Source: Thermodesulfobacteriota bacterium (GTDB lineage: Bacteria; Desulfobacterota; Desulfobulbia; Desulfobulbales; SURF-16). From it: a DNA stretch of 64,000 nt. Below are positions 23,579 through 52,243 of this stretch, piece after piece (the first letter of the stretch is position 1; the number at the start of each line of letters is the position of its first letter). Where the stretch lies: contig JBMONO010000034.1 of assembly GCA_049323655.1 (NCBI GenBank), positions 45,354 through 109,353 of the forward strand, read 5' to 3'. Under the pieces are notes generated by a model. That model ran no database searches and was not told the DNA's origin. It was given only the letters and a program-made list of their open reading frames with translations. Both the position numbers and the translations under genes were made by a program.

Positions 23579-24142
23579 ATGTCCATGCTTGATTTCATCA
23601 TCATTTTTTTAGTTGCCGTTTTCCTTGTCAGGGGAATCTGGATCGGCTTTGTCCGACAGCTCGCCTCCATCGCTGCGCTGGTGCTGGGTTTTGTCATTGC
23701 CGGCCGTTGTTATGGCGAATCGGCCGCTTTTGTCACTCCTTTTGTCCGTGACCCTCAGCTCGGTTTTTTTATTGCGTATCTGGTTCTTTTTGCCGCCGTC
23801 TTCGGGGCCGTCATTCTGCTCGGCGTTTTTCTTCGCCAGGTCGTCACCCTTTCGCTGCTCGGCTGGTTTGACCGGATGCTGGGTGGTGTTTTCGGCATCG
23901 CCAAGGCTGCACTGCTCTCCTGTCTGCTGGTTATGTCTGCAGGTCTCGTCGTCTCGGGCTCCCACCCTTTTTTCCGCAGCTCGTCCCTTTATCCCTATCT
24001 GGAAAACGGCTCACAATTGCTGCTCATCCTCATTCGCGACCGCCAGCTCCGCGACTCCCTCTGGCCCCGGCTGCCCGCTATCGTCCCTATGTCTGATTCC
24101 CCGGTACAAACGGGCAAGCCGGTCCGGAGTGGCGCCGAGTAA
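23579..24142 (+). CDS. cvpA: CvpA-family membrane protein
   Basis: LDFIII...RGIWIGFVRQL, DRMLGGVFGIAK; four hydrophobic segments. Confidence 0.88.
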   Translation: MSMLDFIIIFLVAVFLVRGIWIGFVRQLASIAALVLGFVIAGRCYGESAAFVTPFVRDPQLGFFIAYLVLFAAVFGAVILLGVFLRQVVTLSLLGWFDRMLGGVFGIAKAALLSCLLVMSAGLVVSGSHPFFRSSSLYPYLENGSQLLLILIRDRQLRDSLWPRLPAIVPMSDSPVQTGKPVRSGAE

Positions 24143-24781
24143 AAAACCCGCAACCATCAGCTGATTGAGCAGTGTTGTTCGTATTATCCCCAGTTGCCGC
24201 CAGCGTCGGTCCGAGGTCAGGGCGGTTTCGGCAAGCAGTCTGATTCTCCCTTTTTTGCGAAGACGGCGGACCAGGCAGAAGTCTTCCATGATCGGCATCT
24301 CGGGATATCCACCGAGTTCAATAAAATCCACTCTTTTCAGAAAGATGCCCTGATCGCCGTAGGGCAGTTTCAGGAGGCGAGCGCGAAGGTTTGCCAGTTT
24401 GGCGATCAAGCGCAGCCCGCCGCCTGGCCCGTCGATACCCAGGCGAAACGCGCCGGCAATCCATTTTCCCGATGTCATGGTCTCTTCCACTGCTGCCATG
24501 AATCCATTTGGCAGACGTGTGTCGCCATGGAGAAACAGCAGGATATCGCCCCTTGCCGCTGTTGCACCGACGTTCATTTGCCTGGCCCGGCCCTTTTCCG
24601 TTTCCATCACCATGGCCCCTTGCTGTGCTGCGATATCCCTGGTACGGTCGGAGCTGCCGCCGTCAACGACCACGATTTCCAGGCCTTGAGCGCTCCCCAG
24701 GGAGTGCAGGGTGCGGCCGATATACTCCTCTTCGTTGTACACCGGAATGATGATGGTAAGAATCGGCTTTTTCCTGTCCAT
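24011..24781 (-). CDS. GT2 glycosyltransferase, TIGR04283 type (rSAM/selenodomain- and arsenosugar-associated)
   Basis: IIIPVYNEE, VVDGGSSD, GRARQMN.GA, FLHGDT, LPYGDQGIF, GGYPEMPIMED, SDRRW. Confidence 0.88.
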   Translation of the reverse strand: MDRKKPILTIIIPVYNEEEYIGRTLHSLGSAQGLEIVVVDGGSSDRTRDIAAQQGAMVMETEKGRARQMNVGATAARGDILLFLHGDTRLPNGFMAAVEETMTSGKWIAGAFRLGIDGPGGGLRLIAKLANLRARLLKLPYGDQGIFLKRVDFIELGGYPEMPIMEDFCLVRRLRKKGRIRLLAETALTSDRRWRQLGIIRTTLLNQLMVAGFLLGATPDRLARLYRGIRHRDDSGQPGPEGVAELAVANEDEQQL

Positions 24782-24786
24782 TATTG

Positions 24787-25440
24787 TCAGATGTCGATCC
24801 CGGTGAGTAGCTCAGGTAAGTTATTTGCCAGCAGGGCCAGATCTTCCGGCCGGTCGATGTCGGGCAGCGGTGGCAGCATGGCAACGGTTATGTTGTGCGC
24901 TTTGCACTTGTCCATCGTCTGCCGCAGAACACCTTCCCCTCCCCAGTTTATGTTCTCCCACAGAAGATCAGCCGGTCTGTTCAGGCCGAGCAGATAATAG
25001 CCGCCGTCATGGGCCGGGCCGATTACCGCATCCCGCGTCCCCAGCAAGTTAAAGGCCTCGTCAAGCAATTCTGCGGTGAGAAAGGGGCAATCAGCGCCGA
25101 TGATGACGGTGCGGGCCGCATCGCAGGCAAATGCCGTGTTGACCGCATGGCGCATCCGCATGCCTAGATCTCCCCCGTGCTGTTTTTTGACGGCGCATCC
25201 GATCGGCACCCACCTTCGGACTTCTTTAGTTGACCCGCCGTCGAAATAAACTTCGACCCGCAGTGCCCGCTTTTCCTGCATTGCCAGGGCCTGTCTATAC
25301 ATCAGTTCAGTCATCCGCTGCTGGAGTCTGGCCGCCCCTTCTGCGCCCAAGGCCGGGATCAGCCGCGTTTTGACCAAGCCCGGGCGCGGGTAGCGGGTAA
25401 ATAGTAATAGCGTTTCGAGGGGAAGATTTGGTAGTGTCAT
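24787..25440 (-). CDS. TIGR04282-type (DUF2064, CofC-like) transferase
   Basis: FTRYPRPGLVKTRLIP, QHGGDLGMRM, IGADCP, GPAHDGGYYLLG, DIDRPEDL. Confidence 0.88.
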   Translation of the reverse strand: MTLPNLPLETLLLFTRYPRPGLVKTRLIPALGAEGAARLQQRMTELMYRQALAMQEKRALRVEVYFDGGSTKEVRRWVPIGCAVKKQHGGDLGMRMRHAVNTAFACDAARTVIIGADCPFLTAELLDEAFNLLGTRDAVIGPAHDGGYYLLGLNRPADLLWENINWGGEGVLRQTMDKCKAHNITVAMLPPLPDIDRPEDLALLANNLPELLTGIDI

Positions 25441-27006: not shown

Positions 27007-27741
27007 TTATCGCCCCAATCGGTTTATGATATCGCCCACCGTTTCATTGCCGATTTTTTCTCTGGCAATGACAGCCAGCAGGTCACTTATTTCCCTTGCC
27101 TCCTTCGGCAGGAGGAGGAATCCTGGTATCCTTTCCGCCTGCAGAATTTTTTCGTGCGCCGTTCTGATTCTTTCTCTTTTTTTCATTCGTTTCAGGATAT
27201 CCGCCTGTTCCGGTCGGCAACACATCACTCGCAGCACCTCAATGAGGTTCCCCCATATCCTGCCTTGGCCGATGTGCTCGATAAGTTGCAGCATTACCGT
27301 GTTGATCGTAACGATGCGTCCCGGCAGGGTTGCCTCGCCGCTGCTGCAGTTGTTTTGCGAAAAGAAACTTCGGCAGGAAAAGGGCCGCGCCGTATAAACG
27401 GTGCAGTTGTTTTTCTCCAGTAATGGGCAGGGAAGTGCCGGCTGATGCACTGTTTCTTTTGTTTCGATCACCCGTCGCTGCAGGCAGATTCGGGCGGCAG
27501 CGTTGGTGGTCATGGAAGGTGTGGCGGTTACCGGCGCCCTGTCGAGCATATCAGCGAACCAATCGATTTTTCCCGATGACCGTACGTGGTTGAGAATGCC
27601 TTCCGCTTCGCATTCTGTCATCATGACGTTCGCTGTGCAGCAGGCCGCGCAGCCTTGATGGCAATAAAAGTTCTCCCGCTTCAGCCATTGGGCATGATGC
27701 TGATAGAGTATGGCCAGAATGTCGGCCTCGTTATTTCGCAT
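27007..27741 (-). CDS. YkgJ-family cysteine-cluster protein
   Basis: CHQGCAACC...CPLL...CTVYTARPFSCR; start 27741 preceded by AAGGA. Confidence 0.8.
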   Translation of the reverse strand: MRNNEADILAILYQHHAQWLKRENFYCHQGCAACCTANVMMTECEAEGILNHVRSSGKIDWFADMLDRAPVTATPSMTTNAAARICLQRRVIETKETVHQPALPCPLLEKNNCTVYTARPFSCRSFFSQNNCSSGEATLPGRIVTINTVMLQLIEHIGQGRIWGNLIEVLRVMCCRPEQADILKRMKKRERIRTAHEKILQAERIPGFLLLPKEAREISDLLAVIAREKIGNETVGDIINRLGR

Positions 27742-27751
27742 TTTTCGTTCC

Positions 27752-27972
27752 TTACAGGACGTCGTCCGGCACAAGGCGCATGCTCAACCAGATCAGCAAC
27801 GCGGAGAAGGTGGCGTCATCGATCAGCCCGAAGCCGAACAAAACGTCCGGAAGGTGTCAGCGGGCACCAGCAGGTAAATCAAGGCGGCGGCAAACAGCAG
27901 TTTGGCCACCCAGGGTGTTCCGCGGTCGGTCATTATTTTCAGATACCGGACAGAGCGGTGCAGCCGTTCCAT
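27752..27972 (-). pseudogene. YkvA/DUF1232 small membrane protein with a one-base frameshift near 27855
   Basis: First frame MERLHRSVRYLKIMTDRGTPWVAKLLFAAALIYLLVPAD; shifted frame continues LPDVLFGFGLIDDATFSALLIWLSMRLVPDDVL-stop, together completing the DUF1232 P.D.LPD..G.G.IDD pattern. Confidence 0.75.
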
Positions 27973-46291: not shown

Positions 46292-47122
46292 TTACCCTTT
46301 TTGACAGCAGGGACAGAAAAAGGTGCTCCTGCCGCCGATCACCTGTTTGGCAATGGCCGTATGGCAGCACGGGCACGGCTCGCCGGCCCGACCGTAGACC
46401 GCGAGCTCCAGCTGAAAATAGCCTTTTTGCCCGGAACTGTTGACAAAATCACTGATTGAGCTGCCGCCGGCGGCAATGGCGCGACTGAGGACGCTTTGGG
46501 TCGCCGCGGCTACTCTCTCCCATTGCCGGCCGGAGAGGGATCCCGCCGGGGTGGTCGGATGGATGCCGCAGACAAAAAGGATCTCGTTGGCGTAGATGTT
46601 GCCGATGCCTGCCACCATCTGACCGTCCAAGAGGAAATTTTTCACCGGCTGCAGCCGGCCTCTCGCCTTTTCCTGGAGATAGGGGCCGCTGAAATCGTCG
46701 GCAAAGGGCTCCCTGCCGAGCTTGGCAAAGGGGTCTGCAGCGGCCAGGTGGCCGGGTGGCAGCACTCTGATGCAGCCGAAACGGCGGGGGTCATTGTAGC
46801 GCAGCTGGCTGCCGTCGGTAAAGGTGAGGACGAGGTGGTCATGGAGACCGGGCGGGGCCGCGGCGGGGAAAATCCCCAGTTTGCCGCTCATGCCGAGGTG
46901 GATAATCATGGCGGCCTCCTGGTTGGCGAGAAGAAAGAGGAGAAATTTGCCGCGCCGGCGAATATCGCTGATCGCACTGCCCTTGACCCACTGCTGCAAT
47001 GCCGCCTCGGGCAGCGGCAGTCGCAGGTTTTTTCCGGAACAGGCGACAGTGTGCACCTGGCGGCCGATCACATGGGGGAGCAGGCCCCGGCGGATGACCT
47101 CGACCTCGGGTAGTTCCGGCAT
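46292..47122 (-). CDS. mutM: Formamidopyrimidine-DNA glycosylase
   Basis: MPELPEVE, RRGK, HLGMSG, AGIGNIYANE, CPCC...CPCCQ zinc finger. Confidence 0.97.
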   Translation of the reverse strand: MPELPEVEVIRRGLLPHVIGRQVHTVACSGKNLRLPLPEAALQQWVKGSAISDIRRRGKFLLFLLANQEAAMIIHLGMSGKLGIFPAAAPPGLHDHLVLTFTDGSQLRYNDPRRFGCIRVLPPGHLAAADPFAKLGREPFADDFSGPYLQEKARGRLQPVKNFLLDGQMVAGIGNIYANEILFVCGIHPTTPAGSLSGRQWERVAAATQSVLSRAIAAGGSSISDFVNSSGQKGYFQLELAVYGRAGEPCPCCHTAIAKQVIGGRSTFFCPCCQKG

Positions 47123-47123
47123 G

Positions 47124-50100
47124 TCAGATCACCAGGGCGACCGGCAGCCCCGTCTCCGCGCCCCGATCACGGCTGTCCCAGAGCAGGCAGCCCTTGCGGA
47201 TACACTCGCGATTATGCGGGTACTGGTTGCAGTGGAGAGTATCTGCGGCAACCAGTGTAACCGGCAGCAGGTCATGCGAGAGGCGGCCGGCCTCCTGCAG
47301 GGCGATGACGCTTTCCCGCTGACAGCAGCGACCGGCCCGGATTGCGGCTATTTTTTCGAGAACCTGGGCCGTGGCCTGCTGGGCCTGCTGCCGTTTGCCC
47401 GGGGTGAGCGGGGTCGCCTCGAGAATGACGGAAAAGGCGATCCCCACTCCGAGGGCGGCGCCACAACCGCCCCAGAAACCGCAGACTCCGCCCGGCACCC
47501 GGCTGCCGCGCTCAATGGCGGCGAGGATGTCTTTTTTTCCGGCCTTGCCGCCCCGGGCCCGGTAGGCGGAGAGGATGACGCCGGGGATGATGGCATGGTG
47601 CTCCGGTCCATGCATGGAGATGGCGGACTGCGATCTGATTTTTTTCAGCAGGATGATCATGTCCTCCACCGCTGACTCGGTGCAGATCTTTTTAATAACC
47701 GCCAAGCCCTTGTCCTGATGACAGTTGTCACAGACGAAATGGCCGTGCAGGCAGACGGCGTTCGCCTCTTTCTCCTCTCCGCAATAATGGCAGGTTGTGG
47801 CCCGATCCCGGGTGAAGTAGCGCAACTCGCAGCCGCAGACCATGCAGTCGCTGTGCTGGCGCCGATCGCTTGCCGCTGGCGAGGAACAGCAGGAGAGGGC
47901 GGGGCTGTTCTCCGGCGGCAGACCGCAGCAGCCTCCGCCCTGGTCGATATTGATCACTGCGCCCTCCTGGTTCAAAATAAAGACCGATTCGTCTAGTCCG
48001 GCCAGATCAGCTGCCGCGATCCGGGTTTTTTCCCCTTTGAGCAGCAGTTTGCCGCTCTCGGTGTAGACGCCGGCAAACGGCCCGCGGTAGATGACTTGGG
48101 CCGTCTCGGGCACGGCCGGCTTCCAGGCAAGGAAGGTAAGTGAATAAAAACGGGTGTTCCCAACGCTGCGATAGGGAAAACGTTTGAGGAGGCGCACTGC
48201 AACAAAGCCGGTGGCGCAAAGCATGGCCAGTAGTTCCGTTTGTCGCATGGCGCCGCCCAGACACTCACCCCGCAGTTTTTCGTCGTTTTTGATCGCAGGC
48301 GGCACCGCCTCGTCGGTGACGATGTCAGCCACCACCAGCCTACCGCCGGGGCGGAGGATACGGAAGGCCTCGTGCAGGGTGCGGCGTTTGTCCGGGCTCA
48401 GATTGATGACGCAGTTGGAGATCACCGCATCGGCAATGCTGTCCTCCAGGGGGATTTCTTCGAGAAAACCCTTGCGAAACTCGACGTTGTCAAAGCCGAG
48501 ACGTTGTGCCACCTCGCGTTGGGAAGAGCGGGCCAGGGTCAGCATGGCGTCGGTCATGTCGATGCCGTAGACCCTGCCGGCGGAGCCCACCATTGCCGCG
48601 CCCTGAAAGCACTCGACCCCGCTGCCGCTGCCAAGATCAACCAGGGTTTCGCCCTGGGAGAGGAAGGCGTCCCGGACCGGGCTGCCGCAGCCATAGGAGC
48701 GCTGGCGGGACACCGCCGGAATGAAATCCTCCTCCTGCTGGCGGTCGGCAAAGGGGTTGACGATTTCCGCATTGGCCTCCTGGGCGGCCCGTCCGTAAAA
48801 TTCCCGTACCGTGGCATGACCCCGGTCGTCCCCGAGGGAGACGACGCAGTTGCAGTGGGTCAGCGCCACCGCGCCTCCCTCCGGGCAGTCATGACGGACA
48901 TCGCCCATGCGCAGCAGGATCGATCCCTCTGTCTGCGTTGAATAGCATCCGGCCTGGCGGGCAATAAGCCAGAGGGCCATGCGGTTGTAAAGCTCGACAT
49001 AGGGATCATGGCCGGTGAAGGAACCGCCGCGTAAGTAGCTGTGGTCGATATCGCCGCCGCCGATGAGAAAACGCAGGGGATTTTCCTCGTAGGCGGAGCC
49101 GGCAATGGTTGTCTGGCGCAAGTCTGCGAGCAGCGGGCTCGTGCGCCACACCTGTTCGAGTCCCTCGGTGAGAACACCACAACGCAGCGCGGGAATGGCC
49201 ACCAGGGCCGGCGAGGGGTAGATCGCCCCGTCCGGACCGACGGCCAGGGATTCCCAGCCGCTGTTGCTGAGGTCAAAGCGGGTGCCGGGAGAGGAGAATA
49301 CCTGGCTTTTCAGTGCCTCGACGTTATCTACCATGATGCCGAGGTGTTCTGCGAGTTCCAGGGCCGGTCGCAGATGGGTCCAGATTTCATCCGGCGGCAC
49401 GAACTGGTTGCTGCTGCCCTTGCCCCGGACAAAGTGCCAGAGCAGGTGGAGATTGCCGACCTCCATGTCTCCGGCAAGGGAAACGATGGCGGAGAGTTCC
49501 GCCACGTTGTGCCGGTTGACCGCCACCGACAGAGTGGGGCGGATGTGGTGGTCCCGGAGAAAGGTGAGGTTATCGAGCAGTCTGGCAAAGGTGCCGGTGC
49601 CGCGCAGGCGTTCGTGGTTCTCTTCCAGTCCGTCGAGACTGATCTGCAGATGAAGCCGCTCCCGGTCGGCGCGGGTAAAAAATGCCCCGTGCTCCCGCAG
49701 AAGCAGGCCATTGGTCAGCACCACCGTATGGCAGTGCGGATCCGCAGCCAGCAGGTCACAAAGGACATCGGAAAAGTGCGGGTAGATAAAGGGCTCGCCG
49801 CCGGTAAAATAAAAGATGGTGCAGCCCAGCTCTCGCGCCTCTGCCATGGCGCGGCGCAGATCGACCTCGGGCAGGGCAGCCGGCGAGGCCGGAGAGGCGC
49901 TGAACAGGCAGTGGCGGCAGGCCAGATTGCAGGCGTCGGTAAGATGGAACCAGCATTCTTTCAGGCGGGTGAGTGAGAGCACCTGGCCGCGGCCGGCGTA
50001 TGGCGGGGTCGGCTCCCGTTCGGTCAGGGCGCGGAGGCGGGCCAGGTGCAGTGTCTGCATCTCCCCTGGTCGGGTTTGATTGGAGAGCAAGGAGTCGGTT

Positions 50101-50204
50101 TGGCCATCGGCGACAAACCAGTCCGGAATGTCGGGGGCAACATAGATGGCGTAACCGTCAAACTCGAATCTTTTCCAGTGCGGTGAGGATTTCGTCGTAT
50201 TCAT
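47124..50204 (-). CDS. Fusion: radical SAM + degenerate SPASM + ArsM-type As(III) methyltransferase + Cys-rich DUF5714-like domain
   Basis: CNLACRHC (49908-49931), FTGGEP; YGCGSP, DLGSGSG, GIDMT, ISNCVINL, GECLGGA; C-terminal CMVCG/CHYCG/CDNCH, HGPEHH, CGFWGGCG, RCCQRE. Confidence 0.82.
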   Translation of the reverse strand: MNTTKSSPHWKRFEFDGYAIYVAPDIPDWFVADGQTDSLLSNQTRPGEMQTLHLARLRALTEREPTPPYAGRGQVLSLTRLKECWFHLTDACNLACRHCLFSASPASPAALPEVDLRRAMAEARELGCTIFYFTGGEPFIYPHFSDVLCDLLAADPHCHTVVLTNGLLLREHGAFFTRADRERLHLQISLDGLEENHERLRGTGTFARLLDNLTFLRDHHIRPTLSVAVNRHNVAELSAIVSLAGDMEVGNLHLLWHFVRGKGSSNQFVPPDEIWTHLRPALELAEHLGIMVDNVEALKSQVFSSPGTRFDLSNSGWESLAVGPDGAIYPSPALVAIPALRCGVLTEGLEQVWRTSPLLADLRQTTIAGSAYEENPLRFLIGGGDIDHSYLRGGSFTGHDPYVELYNRMALWLIARQAGCYSTQTEGSILLRMGDVRHDCPEGGAVALTHCNCVVSLGDDRGHATVREFYGRAAQEANAEIVNPFADRQQEEDFIPAVSRQRSYGCGSPVRDAFLSQGETLVDLGSGSGVECFQGAAMVGSAGRVYGIDMTDAMLTLARSSQREVAQRLGFDNVEFRKGFLEEIPLEDSIADAVISNCVINLSPDKRRTLHEAFRILRPGGRLVVADIVTDEAVPPAIKNDEKLRGECLGGAMRQTELLAMLCATGFVAVRLLKRFPYRSVGNTRFYSLTFLAWKPAVPETAQVIYRGPFAGVYTESGKLLLKGEKTRIAAADLAGLDESVFILNQEGAVINIDQGGGCCGLPPENSPALSCCSSPAASDRRQHSDCMVCGCELRYFTRDRATTCHYCGEEKEANAVCLHGHFVCDNCHQDKGLAVIKKICTESAVEDMIILLKKIRSQSAISMHGPEHHAIIPGVILSAYRARGGKAGKKDILAAIERGSRVPGGVCGFWGGCGAALGVGIAFSVILEATPLTPGKRQQAQQATAQVLEKIAAIRAGRCCQRESVIALQEAGRLSHDLLPVTLVAADTLHCNQYPHNRECIRKGCLLWDSRDRGAETGLPVALVI

Positions 50205-50414
50205 GGCAAAATTAGGGTAAAGTGACGCGTTAATCGCGGCGGACCACGGAGGGTCGTGGCCTTTTCGCCGCATCGACCTACCCTATCATAAATGTCGTTT
50301 TCTGCAATCAGGATTGCTGTCCTGGCCCAGGAAGGCAGGATTAATTCTTCATCACAACAAAAAAATGCAATTGTGCCCCGGACCGGCGGCACCAGTGAAA
50401 ACAACGATAAGACC

Positions 50415-52243
<1,829 letters not shown>

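Follow-up and report, generated by a model that had tools for sequence, protein, structure and literature searches.

Organization of the locus

The window, i.e., the whole stretch of 64,000 nucleotides that was analysed, carries a gene in which a radical SAM (rSAM) module, an ArsM/AS3MT-type methyltransferase module and a DUF5714 tail are fused (Table 1). Its open reading frame is uninterrupted at 47124..50273 (−) and would encode 1049 aa from the first ATG (50273). A start at 50204, which gives the uninterrupted 1026-aa frame of the original prediction, fits the N-termini of homologs of the fusion; the first ATG has the better Shine–Dalgarno-like sequence, and both positions are therefore candidates. 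Pfam matches supported the three-part architecture that had been predicted: Radical_SAM at aa 88–237 (E = 1.5e-18), Methyltransf_31 at aa 516–654 (E = 1e-30) and DUF5714 at aa 837–1008 (E = 1.7e-57).

The start of mutM lies 1 nt past the stop codon of the fusion, and the two genes are probably co-transcribed. mutM was found downstream of the fusion in 23 of 83 loci, all Desulfobulbales-type; because of this restriction the linkage is probably inherited synteny, and it was rejected as a functional clue.

Table 1. Features of the fusion gene and of other genes in the window.
Feature	Position	Strand	Basis
Whole gene, rSAM–ArsM–DUF5714 fusion	47124..50204	−	1026 aa + stop; ORF list, domains
Radical SAM module, aa 1–458	48831..50204	−	Pfam Radical_SAM; SPASM-type fold, auxiliary-cluster cysteines lost
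N-terminal three-strand, two-helix domain, aa 10–61	50022..50177	−	Secondary structure of model
CNLACRHC, CxxxCxxC motif C92/C96/C99	49908..49931	−	Invariant in 76/76 family members
C440 ... H450-C451-N-C453, conserved C-terminal rSAM signature	48846..48887	−	76-member conservation
ArsM/AS3MT-type As(III) SAM-methyltransferase module, aa 459–756, including ArsM C-terminal domain	47937..48830	−	PDB, NCBIfam, Foldseek
C506 codon, equivalent to CmArsM C72 (YGCG)	48687..48689	−	Alignment; 100% conserved
C598 codon, equivalent to CmArsM C174 (SNCV)	48411..48413	−	Alignment; 100% conserved
C648 codon, equivalent to CmArsM C224 (GECLGG)	48261..48263	−	Alignment; 100% conserved
Flexible double vicinal-cysteine segment, CC759–760 ... 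CC772–773	47868..47936	−	Model pLDDT below 50
DUF5714 tail, aa 780–1026	47127..47867	−	Pfam 194–198 bits; model pLDDT 90.9
mutM (formamidopyrimidine-DNA glycosylase)	46292..47122	−	Sequence; Pfam labels in homologous loci
TIGR04282-family gene (DUF2064, CofC-like)	24787..25440	−	NCBIfam 206 bits vs cutoff 134
TIGR04283-family GT2 glycosyltransferase gene	24011..24781	−	NCBIfam 253 bits vs cutoff 182

The middle module is related to arsenite methyltransferases

The methyltransferase module matched the PDB sequences 5evj (E = 1.5e-38), human AS3MT 8xt7 (8e-34) and CmArsM 4fr0 (3e-31). All of the top five PDB sequences were ArsM/AS3MT, with E values from 1.5e-38 to 5e-30, and the next methyltransferase followed at 4.5e-9; the top 13 Foldseek matches were likewise all ArsM/AS3MT, and the best NCBIfam matches of the module were arsenite methyltransferases as well. 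As had been proposed, the module therefore groups with arsenite methyltransferases and not with non-arsenic ones. It is ~30% identical to CmArsM 4FR0, CrArsM 5EVJ and human AS3MT 8XT7, and it shares with them the fold, SAM motif I, three As(III)-binding cysteines, and the ArsM C-terminal domain with its trailing Cys-rich segment. Along with the Methyltransf_31 match, the invariant glycine-rich motif I ('VDLGSGSG') identifies a class I SAM-methyltransferase fold. The cysteines that the original prediction had placed at ArsM/AS3MT positions in YGCG (48687), SNCV (48411) and GECLGG (48261) proved to be correctly located and to match CmArsM residue for residue. The equivalents of C72, C174 and C224, as well as SAM motif I, were invariant in 76 members, down to ~33% identity.

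The module differs from ArsM/AS3MT in several respects. It sits in a 1026-aa fusion, and its score for the NCBIfam arsenite methyltransferase PRK11873 was 219 bits, below the curated cutoff of 263, with model positions 39–235 of 272 covered. It also lacks the N-terminal region bearing CmArsM C44, which the permuted relatives keep. In CmArsM and AS3MT, the first methylation depends on this fourth cysteine (C32 in the human enzyme). In the window module it is missing at its usual position, there being no Cys between 'VREFYG' and YGCG; CrArsM has a Cys in the aligned stretch, and permuted relatives have CC motifs there. The YRGPF stretch, previously taken for a linker, falls within the C-terminal domain when the module is aligned with human AS3MT. 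Judged by its sequence, this module is a genuine methyltransferase of the ArsM/AS3MT type, and its predicted activity is of the same type.

The radical SAM module is of SPASM-type descent

The CxxxCxxC motif of the original prediction is present as C92/C96/C99; in rSAM enzymes, this motif binds the SAM-cleaving [4Fe-4S] cluster. SPASM rSAM enzymes (anSME, ChlB, SkfB, PqqE and MftC) were the structural neighbors of the modelled module, and Foldseek gave anSMEcpe and ChlB as the best matches (TM 0.72–0.75 over ~375 columns), indicating a SPASM-type fold after the rSAM core. Pfam detected no SPASM domain in the window module, and the seven-cysteine SPASM motif was not found there; the SPASM cysteines are replaced in the window lineage ('YPS', 'GGGDIDHSY') and retained in sister forms. 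The window lineage differs from SPASM enzymes in having neither auxiliary-cluster cysteines nor a precursor peptide, and in its fusion to ArsM. The best rSAM family matches in NCBIfam were the peptide maturases MftC, StsB and ScmE at ~83 bits, far below their cutoffs. In the model, aa 10–61 probably represent the remnant of a PqqD-like recognition domain; PqqD scored 26 bits (cutoff 23.4) in a sister standalone rSAM protein and was not detectable by Pfam in the window fusion protein. Sister proteins retain both PqqD and SPASM signatures. Sequence and model together indicate that the rSAM module is descended from SPASM-type enzymes and has lost the auxiliary-cluster cysteines.

C440, H450 and C453 were 100% conserved among the 76 members. 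The HCNC motif (aa 450–453) had been counted among the ArsM/AS3MT cysteines; it belongs instead to the rSAM module, which it also closes in the permuted and standalone forms. We rejected the possibility that HCNC is a displaced ArsM CysA, because it ends the rSAM module even where ArsM sits at the other end with its own CysA. A canonical SPASM auxiliary cluster on C342/C440/C451/C453 was rejected as well, since C342 (74% conserved in the 76 members) and C451 are not universally conserved. From the conservation pattern, C440/H450/C453 may perhaps be a candidate arsenic-holding site for the radical step.

ArsS (TIGR04167) is the rSAM enzyme of cyanobacterial arsenosugar synthesis and is paired with a separate ArsM. 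The expectation that the rSAM module would not be ArsS-like was borne out: TIGR04167 was not among the best 25 NCBIfam matches of the fusion, the weakest of which had an E value of 6e-14, and Pfam gave no match in the fusion to DUF3641, the Cys-rich domain at the C-terminus of ArsS.

The cysteine-rich segment and the DUF5714 tail

Pairs of vicinal cysteines were found, as predicted, at 759–760, 772–773 and 960–961. CC759–760 is 93–95% conserved in the 76 members, and tail-less relatives terminate with the same CC-x(5-15)-CC motif. The predicted Cys/His-rich tail was identified as DUF5714 (PF18978), with 194 bits against a gathering score of 26.2 and the full model length covered. In it, a zinc-ribbon-like CxxC...CxxC hairpin precedes a helical bundle, in which the motifs GPEHH, CGFxGxCGAA and RCCQRE are invariant. 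A fold search with the DUF5714 model returned no PDB fold match. A relationship to C_GCAxxG_C_C redox proteins was rejected (hhalign probability 4%, with only the G-CGA motif aligned). Some DUF5714 or fusion proteins carry the JGI label '7,8-dihydro-6-hydroxymethylpterin dimethyltransferase', which derives from the KO of MJ0619, an enzyme since recognised as tetraether lipid synthase; because these proteins showed no significant sequence match to the structure of that enzyme (MJ0619), the label was dropped as a transitive annotation. The tail is missing in about a quarter of family members; it is an optional add-on, dispensable in many lineages.

Two NCBIfam families of anaerobes, ArsM_AhpD_UU and ArsM_DUF2284_UU, resemble the window protein in combining an ArsM-type module with a redox or metal-binding domain rich in Cys/Sec. 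They differ in having no rSAM module, and the window protein has Cys in place of Sec. The DUF5714-related double selenoprotein MbdU was matched by the window tail at 120 bits; all scores of the window protein for these three families were below the curated cutoffs. Relatives of both the ArsM and DUF5714 modules thus occur as selenoproteins (PMC13188914; NCBIfam ArsM_AhpD_UU, MbdU).

The rSAM and ArsM modules occur as fusions in anaerobes

An exhaustive search of 1.84 billion representatives showed that the rSAM clade is small and sharply bounded, comprising ~200 clusters (200 profile matches at E ≤ 1e-30). Of the full-length members, almost all carry ArsM as a fusion partner, either as rSAM-ArsM(-DUF5714) or as the permuted ArsM-rSAM; the two domain orders imply independent fusions. 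When the rSAM module alone was used to find genome loci, all 83 loci encoded fused rSAM and ArsM wherever the ORF was complete. That is, the two modules are obligately coupled. The rSAM-ArsM family was found in >589 species-level genomes of anaerobes. A literature search on DUF5714 or the rSAM-ArsM fusion returned nothing relevant, and the rSAM clade is previously undescribed.

Genomic neighborhood

The fusion had been described as lying among housekeeping genes with no arsR/arsC/acr3 neighbors. Its immediate neighbors are indeed housekeeping genes, and no ars regulator was found near it in the window; however, the window also carries a tandem TIGR04282/TIGR04283 pair (24011..25440) 22 kb from the fusion. 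These two genes are likely pathway partners of the fusion. TIGR04282-like genes occur within 10 kb of the fusion in 11 of the 83 loci; these 11 come from Thermodesulfobacteriota, Desulfuromonadales, Planctomycetota, Bacteroidales, Spirochaetia and Wallbacteria. Many of the TIGR04282-like genes adjoin the fusion directly and share its strand, and they score above curated cutoffs. Genes for TIGR04282 and TIGR04283, a MerA-like reductase and a DedA/VTT protein lie next to the fusion in at least six orders or phyla; VTT/DedA was present in 19 and the MerA-like reductase in 8 of the 83 loci. TIGR04283, alone or together with TIGR04282, also flanks the permuted fusion and a standalone sister rSAM. 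The co-occurrence check suggested in the original prediction was thus positive, both in distant phyla, where the genes adjoin, and within the window. Its claim of a single-polypeptide pathway was overstated, as the fusion is accompanied by separate genes for transferase, membrane and reductase proteins.

TIGR04282 and TIGR04283 bear the label "arsenosugar biosynthesis glycosyltransferase"; TIGR04282 is a 'hypothetical equivalog', and the arsenosugar name of both families has so far rested on co-occurrence with ArsS only. In the contexts of three homologs, the cyanobacterial TIGR04282 gene lies among polysaccharide (hps/GT2) genes, not adjoining arsS/arsM, and no arsS was found near TIGR04282 homologs in these three contexts and two others. 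The second-best match of the TIGR04283 proteins was MftF. Across the 83 loci, there was no conserved ORF of 25–95 aa within 1.2 kb of the fusion, alternate-frame artefacts aside, and the loci encoded neither a cobalamin-binding domain nor a HemN-like rSAM methylase. At some loci, the neighbors include lipid-related genes (flippase-like, FA_hydroxylase, DedA/VTT) or thiol-redox genes (redoxin, DsbD_TM, MerA-like reductase).

Proposed function

In many anaerobic phyla, the rSAM-ArsM pairing travels with arsenosugar-type sugar-transfer genes, suggesting an unstudied anaerobic route to complex organoarsenicals. We propose, with a probability of roughly 0.5, that the fusion is a bifunctional enzyme of organoarsenical biosynthesis with an accessory tail, which feeds an arsenosugar- or arsenolipid-like pathway. 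Based on homology and the invariant ligand cysteines, the ArsM module would use C506/C598/C648 to bind As(III) or MAs(III), which it would methylate with SAM. The rSAM module would then reductively cleave a second SAM and form a further As–C bond on the methylated arsenical, perhaps while C440/H450/C453 hold the arsenical. By analogy with the unrelated ArsS, the radical reaction would most likely be the addition of the 5'-deoxyadenosyl radical to DMAs(III). Fusion of the modules would channel toxic, oxidisable trivalent intermediates, and the CC...CC segment with the DUF5714 tail may take up As(III) or pass it on, or serve as a relay for reducing equivalents. Recurrent gene linkage suggests that the TIGR04282 protein (CofC-like, nucleotidyltransferase-type) and the TIGR04283 protein (GT2) would process the product, probably with participation of the DedA/VTT or flippase-like membrane protein and the MerA-like flavoprotein, and that the end product may be of the arsenosugar type and possibly linked to a lipid.

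ArsS adenosylates DMAs(III) to DDMAA (PMC13598754), and the window rSAM could plausibly perform the same reaction with the 5'-dAdo radical. Both rSAM enzymes are functionally tied to ArsM, in the window family by covalent fusion in two domain orders, and both are associated with TIGR04282/TIGR04283 genes, which score above curated cutoffs at loci of the window family. Unlike ArsS, the window rSAM is of SPASM/PqqE-like descent without DUF3641, it is covalently fused to ArsM, and it occurs in anaerobes rather than cyanobacteria. ArsL is a non-canonical rSAM enzyme that transfers a 3-amino-3-carboxypropyl group (bioRxiv 10.1101/2024.02.01.577332). ArsL/ArsM of arsinothricin biosynthesis also form an rSAM and methyltransferase pair that makes As–C bonds, as predicted for the window protein; however, no similarity to ArsL was seen in the window rSAM module, and the arsinothricin ArsM model matched the C-terminal part of the window methyltransferase at 178 bits, far below its cutoff of 500. 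Because the rSAM module is unrelated to both ArsS and ArsL, its reaction is proposed by analogy. A bolder extension, which we hold only tentatively, is that this module is the third independently evolved rSAM enzyme for As–C bond formation after ArsS and ArsL. It would derive from PqqD-SPASM peptide-maturase stock, with the C...HCxC site replacing the auxiliary clusters as the arsenic-holding site, and together with the fused ArsM and the structurally new Cys/His module DUF5714 it would enable strict anaerobes to produce membrane compounds of the arsenosugar or arsenolipid type. The candidate producers would include sulfur-cycling Desulfobulbales, anammox-type Planctomycetota, Acidobacteriota and Spirochaetia, and anoxic sediments and groundwater would then contain an unrecognised source of complex organoarsenicals.

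Algae and cyanobacteria, with their separate ArsM and ArsS, are regarded as the main source of complex organoarsenicals such as arsenosugars and arsenolipids. If our proposal is correct, sulfate reducers, cable-bacteria relatives and other sediment and groundwater anaerobes possess an alternative fused enzyme system. In aquifers and paddy soils, this would have consequences for the speciation and mobility of arsenic. It would also provide a new radical SAM scaffold for carbon–metalloid bond formation with built-in substrate channelling, and a first functional handle on DUF5714, a fold without a solved relative, and on the TIGR04282/TIGR04283 proteins.

Alternative explanations

Several observations count against the organoarsenical proposal: the rSAM module is unrelated to ArsS and ArsL, the fourth ArsM cysteine is missing at its position in the window lineage, the PRK11873 score is below the cutoff, the arsenosugar label of TIGR04282/TIGR04283 derives from co-occurrence, the cyanobacterial TIGR04282 genes lie among polysaccharide genes and not beside arsS/arsM, and the fusion sits among housekeeping genes with no ars regulator and its partner genes 22 kb away. 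An arsenic enzyme with a different radical step would fit the ArsM identity and the obligate fusion equally well. Such a step could be radical methylation to tri- or tetramethyl species, 3-amino-3-carboxypropyl transfer as in ArsL, C–As bond formation with a lipid or sugar as the acceptor, or a reduction that recycles pentavalent intermediates. The rSAM module is not related to ArsS in sequence, the SPASM ancestry and the PqqD-like N-terminus of the module are typical of H abstraction from a bound substrate rather than 5'-dAdo addition, and flippase-like, FA_hydroxylase and DedA/VTT neighbors would allow a lipid acceptor. However, the shared TIGR04282/TIGR04283 partners point to the downstream chemistry of the ArsS pathway, and the loci encode no cobalamin-binding domain or HemN-like rSAM methylase. 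We consider a different radical step fairly unlikely.

It is quite unlikely, in our estimation, that the in vivo substrate of the ArsM-like module is not arsenic but Sb, Se, Te, or a sulfur or selenium metabolite (thiol or selenol), or that the system builds a modified glycoconjugate or cofactor with no arsenic role. The core-like housekeeping context with translational coupling to mutM and no ars regulator, the polysaccharide loci of cyanobacterial TIGR04282, the selenoprotein relatives of ArsM and DUF5714 (PMC13188914), and the thiol-redox partners (redoxin, DsbD_TM, MerA-like reductase) are consistent with such a role. Nevertheless, none of the three As(III)-ligand cysteines varies across phyla, and all close characterised relatives are arsenite methyltransferases. 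We know of no characterised ArsM-family member with the cysteine triad that acts on a non-metalloid. The fusion could also be a RiPP or cofactor maturase, in which the PqqD-like and SPASM-type rSAM modifies a ribosomal peptide and the methyltransferase decorates the product. In mycofactocin-type systems, MftC works with the GT2 protein MftF; MftC, StsB and ScmE were the best rSAM family matches, MftF was the second-best match of the TIGR04283 proteins, and sister proteins retain PqqD and SPASM signatures. This possibility is very improbable, as all maturase scores were far below cutoffs, no conserved small ORF adjoins the gene across the 83 loci, the auxiliary-cluster cysteines are lost in the window lineage, and a maturase would leave the invariant As-binding triad unexplained.

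Organization of the fusion protein

The original prediction of a single uninterrupted ORF was borne out. The originally proposed start at 50204 agrees with the N-termini of homologs, and residues are numbered in the resulting 1026-aa form. In NCBIfam searches, arsenite methyltransferase models ranked first for aa 478-761, the SPASM-type radical SAM (rSAM) maturases that came top for aa 78-401 were every one far under their cutoffs, and the top model for the tail was 'metal-binding double selenoprotein MbdU'. No curated model for the whole protein was found in NCBIfam or Pfam.

Positions of the fusion gene, its domains and the related or neighbouring features
Feature	Position	Strand	Details
Fusion ORF from first ATG	47124..50273	-	1049 aa
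Fusion gene from start used here	47124..50204	-	1026 aa
Radical_SAM	aa 88-237		Pfam
Methyltransf_31	aa 516-654		Pfam
DUF5714	aa 837-1008		Pfam, E 1.7e-57
DUF5714 region modelled	47127..47867	-	pLDDT 90.9
mutM	46292..47122	-
rph (RNase PH), as listed	50292..51122	+
TIGR04282	24787..25440	-	206 bits, passes curated cutoff
TIGR04283	24011..24781	-	253 bits, passes curated cutoff
Cys-rich ORF	27010..27774	-	255 aa
Low-GC segment	30849..39811		GC 0.47-0.52 around 30-39 kb vs about 0.58-0.63 elsewhere
Permuted fusion, locus L088	8001..10136
DUF2064-GT2 gene, locus L056	7277..8731		485 aa, Planctomycetaceae MAG
Standalone ArsM-like gene, locus L009	1453..2547		365 aa

The five best matches of the methyltransferase module in all PDB sequences were arsenite methyltransferases (Chlamydomonas 5EVJ, 1.5e-38; human AS3MT 8XT7, 8e-34; CmArsM 4FR0, 3e-31), and the next methyltransferase after ArsM/AS3MT followed at about 1e-9. 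Using the full-length model, Foldseek ranked 13 ArsM/AS3MT structures top. C72, C174 and C224 are the As(III) ligands in the CmArsM and AS3MT structures; counted along the CmArsM alignment, they correspond to C506, C598 and C648 of the window protein. These comparisons show that the middle module belongs to the ArsM family, with an intact arsenic site. The fourth cysteine (CysA, Cm C44) was missing from its usual position in the aligned window module. The 'YRGPF' segment had been described as a linker; the human AS3MT alignment continues through 'VIYRGPFAG', and the segment therefore belongs to the ArsM C-terminal domain. In one Desulfobulbales-type MAG, a standalone ArsM-like gene is located 8 kb upstream of the fusion gene.

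The rSAM module has an intact CxxxCxxC and a GGEP motif, and its predicted fold resembles the SPASM enzymes anSMEcpe and ChlB (Foldseek TM 0.72-0.75). The SPASM cysteines are replaced in the window lineage ('YPS' for 'YPC' and 'GGGDIDHSY' for 'CGGGC'), and Pfam detected neither SPASM nor PqqD in the window protein; sister proteins retain both signatures above threshold. A C...H-C-x-C motif closes the module in all forms, with C440, H450 and C453 conserved at 100%. Together, the results show that this intact rSAM module belongs to a distinct clade.

The DUF5714 tail was modelled with high confidence from a 49-sequence alignment as a zinc-ribbon-like hairpin and, after it, a helical bundle, and Foldseek found no similar solved structure (best E about 2, TM <0.25). 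Its conserved features are CxxC...CxxC, C-x3-H-x2-C-x2-CH, GPEHH, CGFxGxCGAA and RCCQRE. The kinship of the tail with the Sec-containing MbdU (PMC13188914) is consistent with a redox or soft-metal role, nothing more specific. Similarity to C_GCAxxG_C_C proteins, considered as possible relatives, was not significant. Standalone DUF5714 proteins of 230-280 aa occur in unrelated taxa at 42-50% identity (homologs P0121-P0240), with hosts including [Eubacterium] cellulosolvens and Candidatus Magnetoglobus; one such copy (locus L004) lies near SAM synthetase, adenosine-kinase-like and flavoprotein genes.

Distribution and domain orders

At least 120 clusters with 54-95% identity share the full-length architecture. 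We scanned 185,579 species genomes using the rSAM module alone as the query, and at least 589 matches were confirmed, in Desulfobulbales, Desulfuromonadales, Desulfobacterales, Clostridia, Planctomycetota, Bacteroidales, Chitinivibrionales, Spirochaetia, Wallbacteria, Acidobacteriota and Nitrospinota. Cultured carriers include Desulfurivibrio dismutans, D. alkaliphilus, Hydrosulfovibrio ferrireducens CB1MN, Desulfoluna limicola ASN36 and Thiovibrio sp. JS02. When 1.84 billion representative proteins were searched exhaustively with a profile, only 200 matches were obtained at E<=1e-30 vs 13,896 at 1e-10, indicating that the rSAM clade is small and well separated. The same search found a permuted form, ArsM-rSAM, that is about 700 aa long and has the whole canonical ArsM N-terminus, as well as a few apparently standalone rSAMs. 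In the permuted fusions P0423, P0425 and P0428, the CC motifs of the canonical ArsM N-terminus and a full SPASM cysteine set were retained.

For comparison of loci, 80 from the genome scan were kept and joined with three found earlier. Wherever the ORF was complete, the rSAM was fused to an ArsM module in all 83, and about three quarters also carried DUF5714; the tail-less members (780-850 aa) have CC-x(5-15)-CC at their C-terminus. Across 76 complete members, the rSAM triad, C440, C453 and the three ArsM ligands were the invariant cysteines, and CC759-760 was 93-95% conserved. The fusion occurs in two orders, which argues strongly that the rSAM and ArsM are functionally coupled, and the survey shows this coupling to be obligate.

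Gene neighbourhood

The window fusion lies among housekeeping genes, as originally described, with rph, tgt and yajC on one side and mutM, a Kef-type antiporter gene, bioF and bioB on the other. The mutM start codon is 1 base past the fusion stop codon. mutM follows the fusion in 23 of the 83 loci, in some cases with an intervening DedA/VTT gene; these are Desulfobulbales-type genomes only, and we therefore regard the linkage as inherited synteny.

None of the neighbours was universal across the loci compared; a recurring set was found instead. In 11 of 83 loci, representing at least six orders or phyla, a TIGR04282-like gene lay no more than 10 kb away, often next to the fusion on the same strand, and TIGR04283-like genes, DedA/VTT genes and MerA-like flavoprotein disulfide reductase genes were found in five, 19 and eight loci, respectively. 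Example neighbours scored above the curated cutoffs (TIGR04282, 181-206 bits vs 134; TIGR04283, 242-245 bits vs 182). In the operon of locus L088, VTT, flippase-like, C_GCAxxG_C_C (seleno)protein-family, membrane protein and TIGR04283 (269 bits) genes, in this order, precede a permuted fusion. A standalone sister rSAM has a flippase-like gene on one side and, on the other, TIGR04283 (253 bits) and then TIGR04282 (200 bits) genes. The two families are themselves joined in locus L056, as a DUF2064-GT2 protein encoded downstream of an rSAM-ArsM-DUF5714 gene, a VTT gene and a Pyr_redox_2 gene. Other partners in individual operons were DUF3047, a GalT/HIT-type nucleotidyltransferase, a fatty-acid-hydroxylase-family protein, DUF547, and redoxin with DsbD_TM.

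In the window, TIGR04282 and TIGR04283 genes form a tandem pair at a distance of 22 kb from the fusion, flanked by genes for a CvpA-like membrane protein, a PPTase-like protein, a Crp-family regulator, a PRK04334 hypothetical protein and a HAD-type GMP/IMP-nucleotidase-like protein. For the close relatives P0003 and P0030, the lengths of the contigs suggest that the fusion and TIGR04282/04283 likewise share one contig. Linkage of the rSAM-ArsM fusion to the TIGR04282/04283 genes is shown to be recurrent.

Proposed function

NCBI's curators tie TIGR04282/04283 to ArsS-dependent arsenosugar synthesis, and As-C bond formation by ArsM plus an rSAM is established in principle with ArsS and ArsL. 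The fusion resembles these systems in that principle; unlike them, it has another rSAM lineage, an obligate fusion in two orders, an optional module without a known fold, and a distribution in anaerobes. A search of the accessible literature found nothing on DUF5714 or an rSAM-ArsM fusion, and database names for these proteins are generic only.

The most economical reading is that the rSAM may be a non-orthologous counterpart of ArsS, fused to ArsM and upstream of an arsenosugar-like pathway. ArsS adenosylates DMAs(III) (PMC13598754), and we infer that the rSAM module would perform the same radical step. Fusion to its ArsM partner would channel trivalent intermediates, and downstream transferases and membrane proteins would yield an arsenosugar-like product, possibly lipid-linked. 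C440, H450 and C453 may take part in the radical chemistry, and the DUF5714 tail may have an accessory role.

Three rival explanations were considered: another kind of As-directed radical reaction, a substrate other than arsenic, and a RiPP or cofactor maturase. The maturase reading is disfavoured, as no conserved precursor ORF was found across the 83 loci. Several caveats apply to the ArsS-counterpart reading. The window ArsM module is without the canonical CysA, and the fusion lies in a housekeeping setting that shows no ars regulation. For TIGR04282/04283, the 'arsenosugar' label is based on co-occurrence. Cyanobacterial TIGR04282 genes (L085, L086 and L091) are located in hormogonium-polysaccharide-type loci (HpsJ, several GT2, N_methyl pilin-like), and no arsS or arsM adjoined them in these three loci; therefore, the name rests there on co-occurrence, not adjacency.

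Other features of the window

The listed rph start is probably about 40 codons too early, as homolog N-termini align at an internal 13-letter segment; the later start would leave about 140-210 bp of divergent intergenic sequence shared by rph and the fusion gene. The Cys-rich ORF (YCHQGCAACC ... C-x-V-Y ... CRSF) had no Pfam or NCBIfam match at E<=0.01 and is not an ArsS. The genes scanned in the low-GC segment are housekeeping genes (M20 peptidase, ribosomal protein S1 and S49 peptidase).
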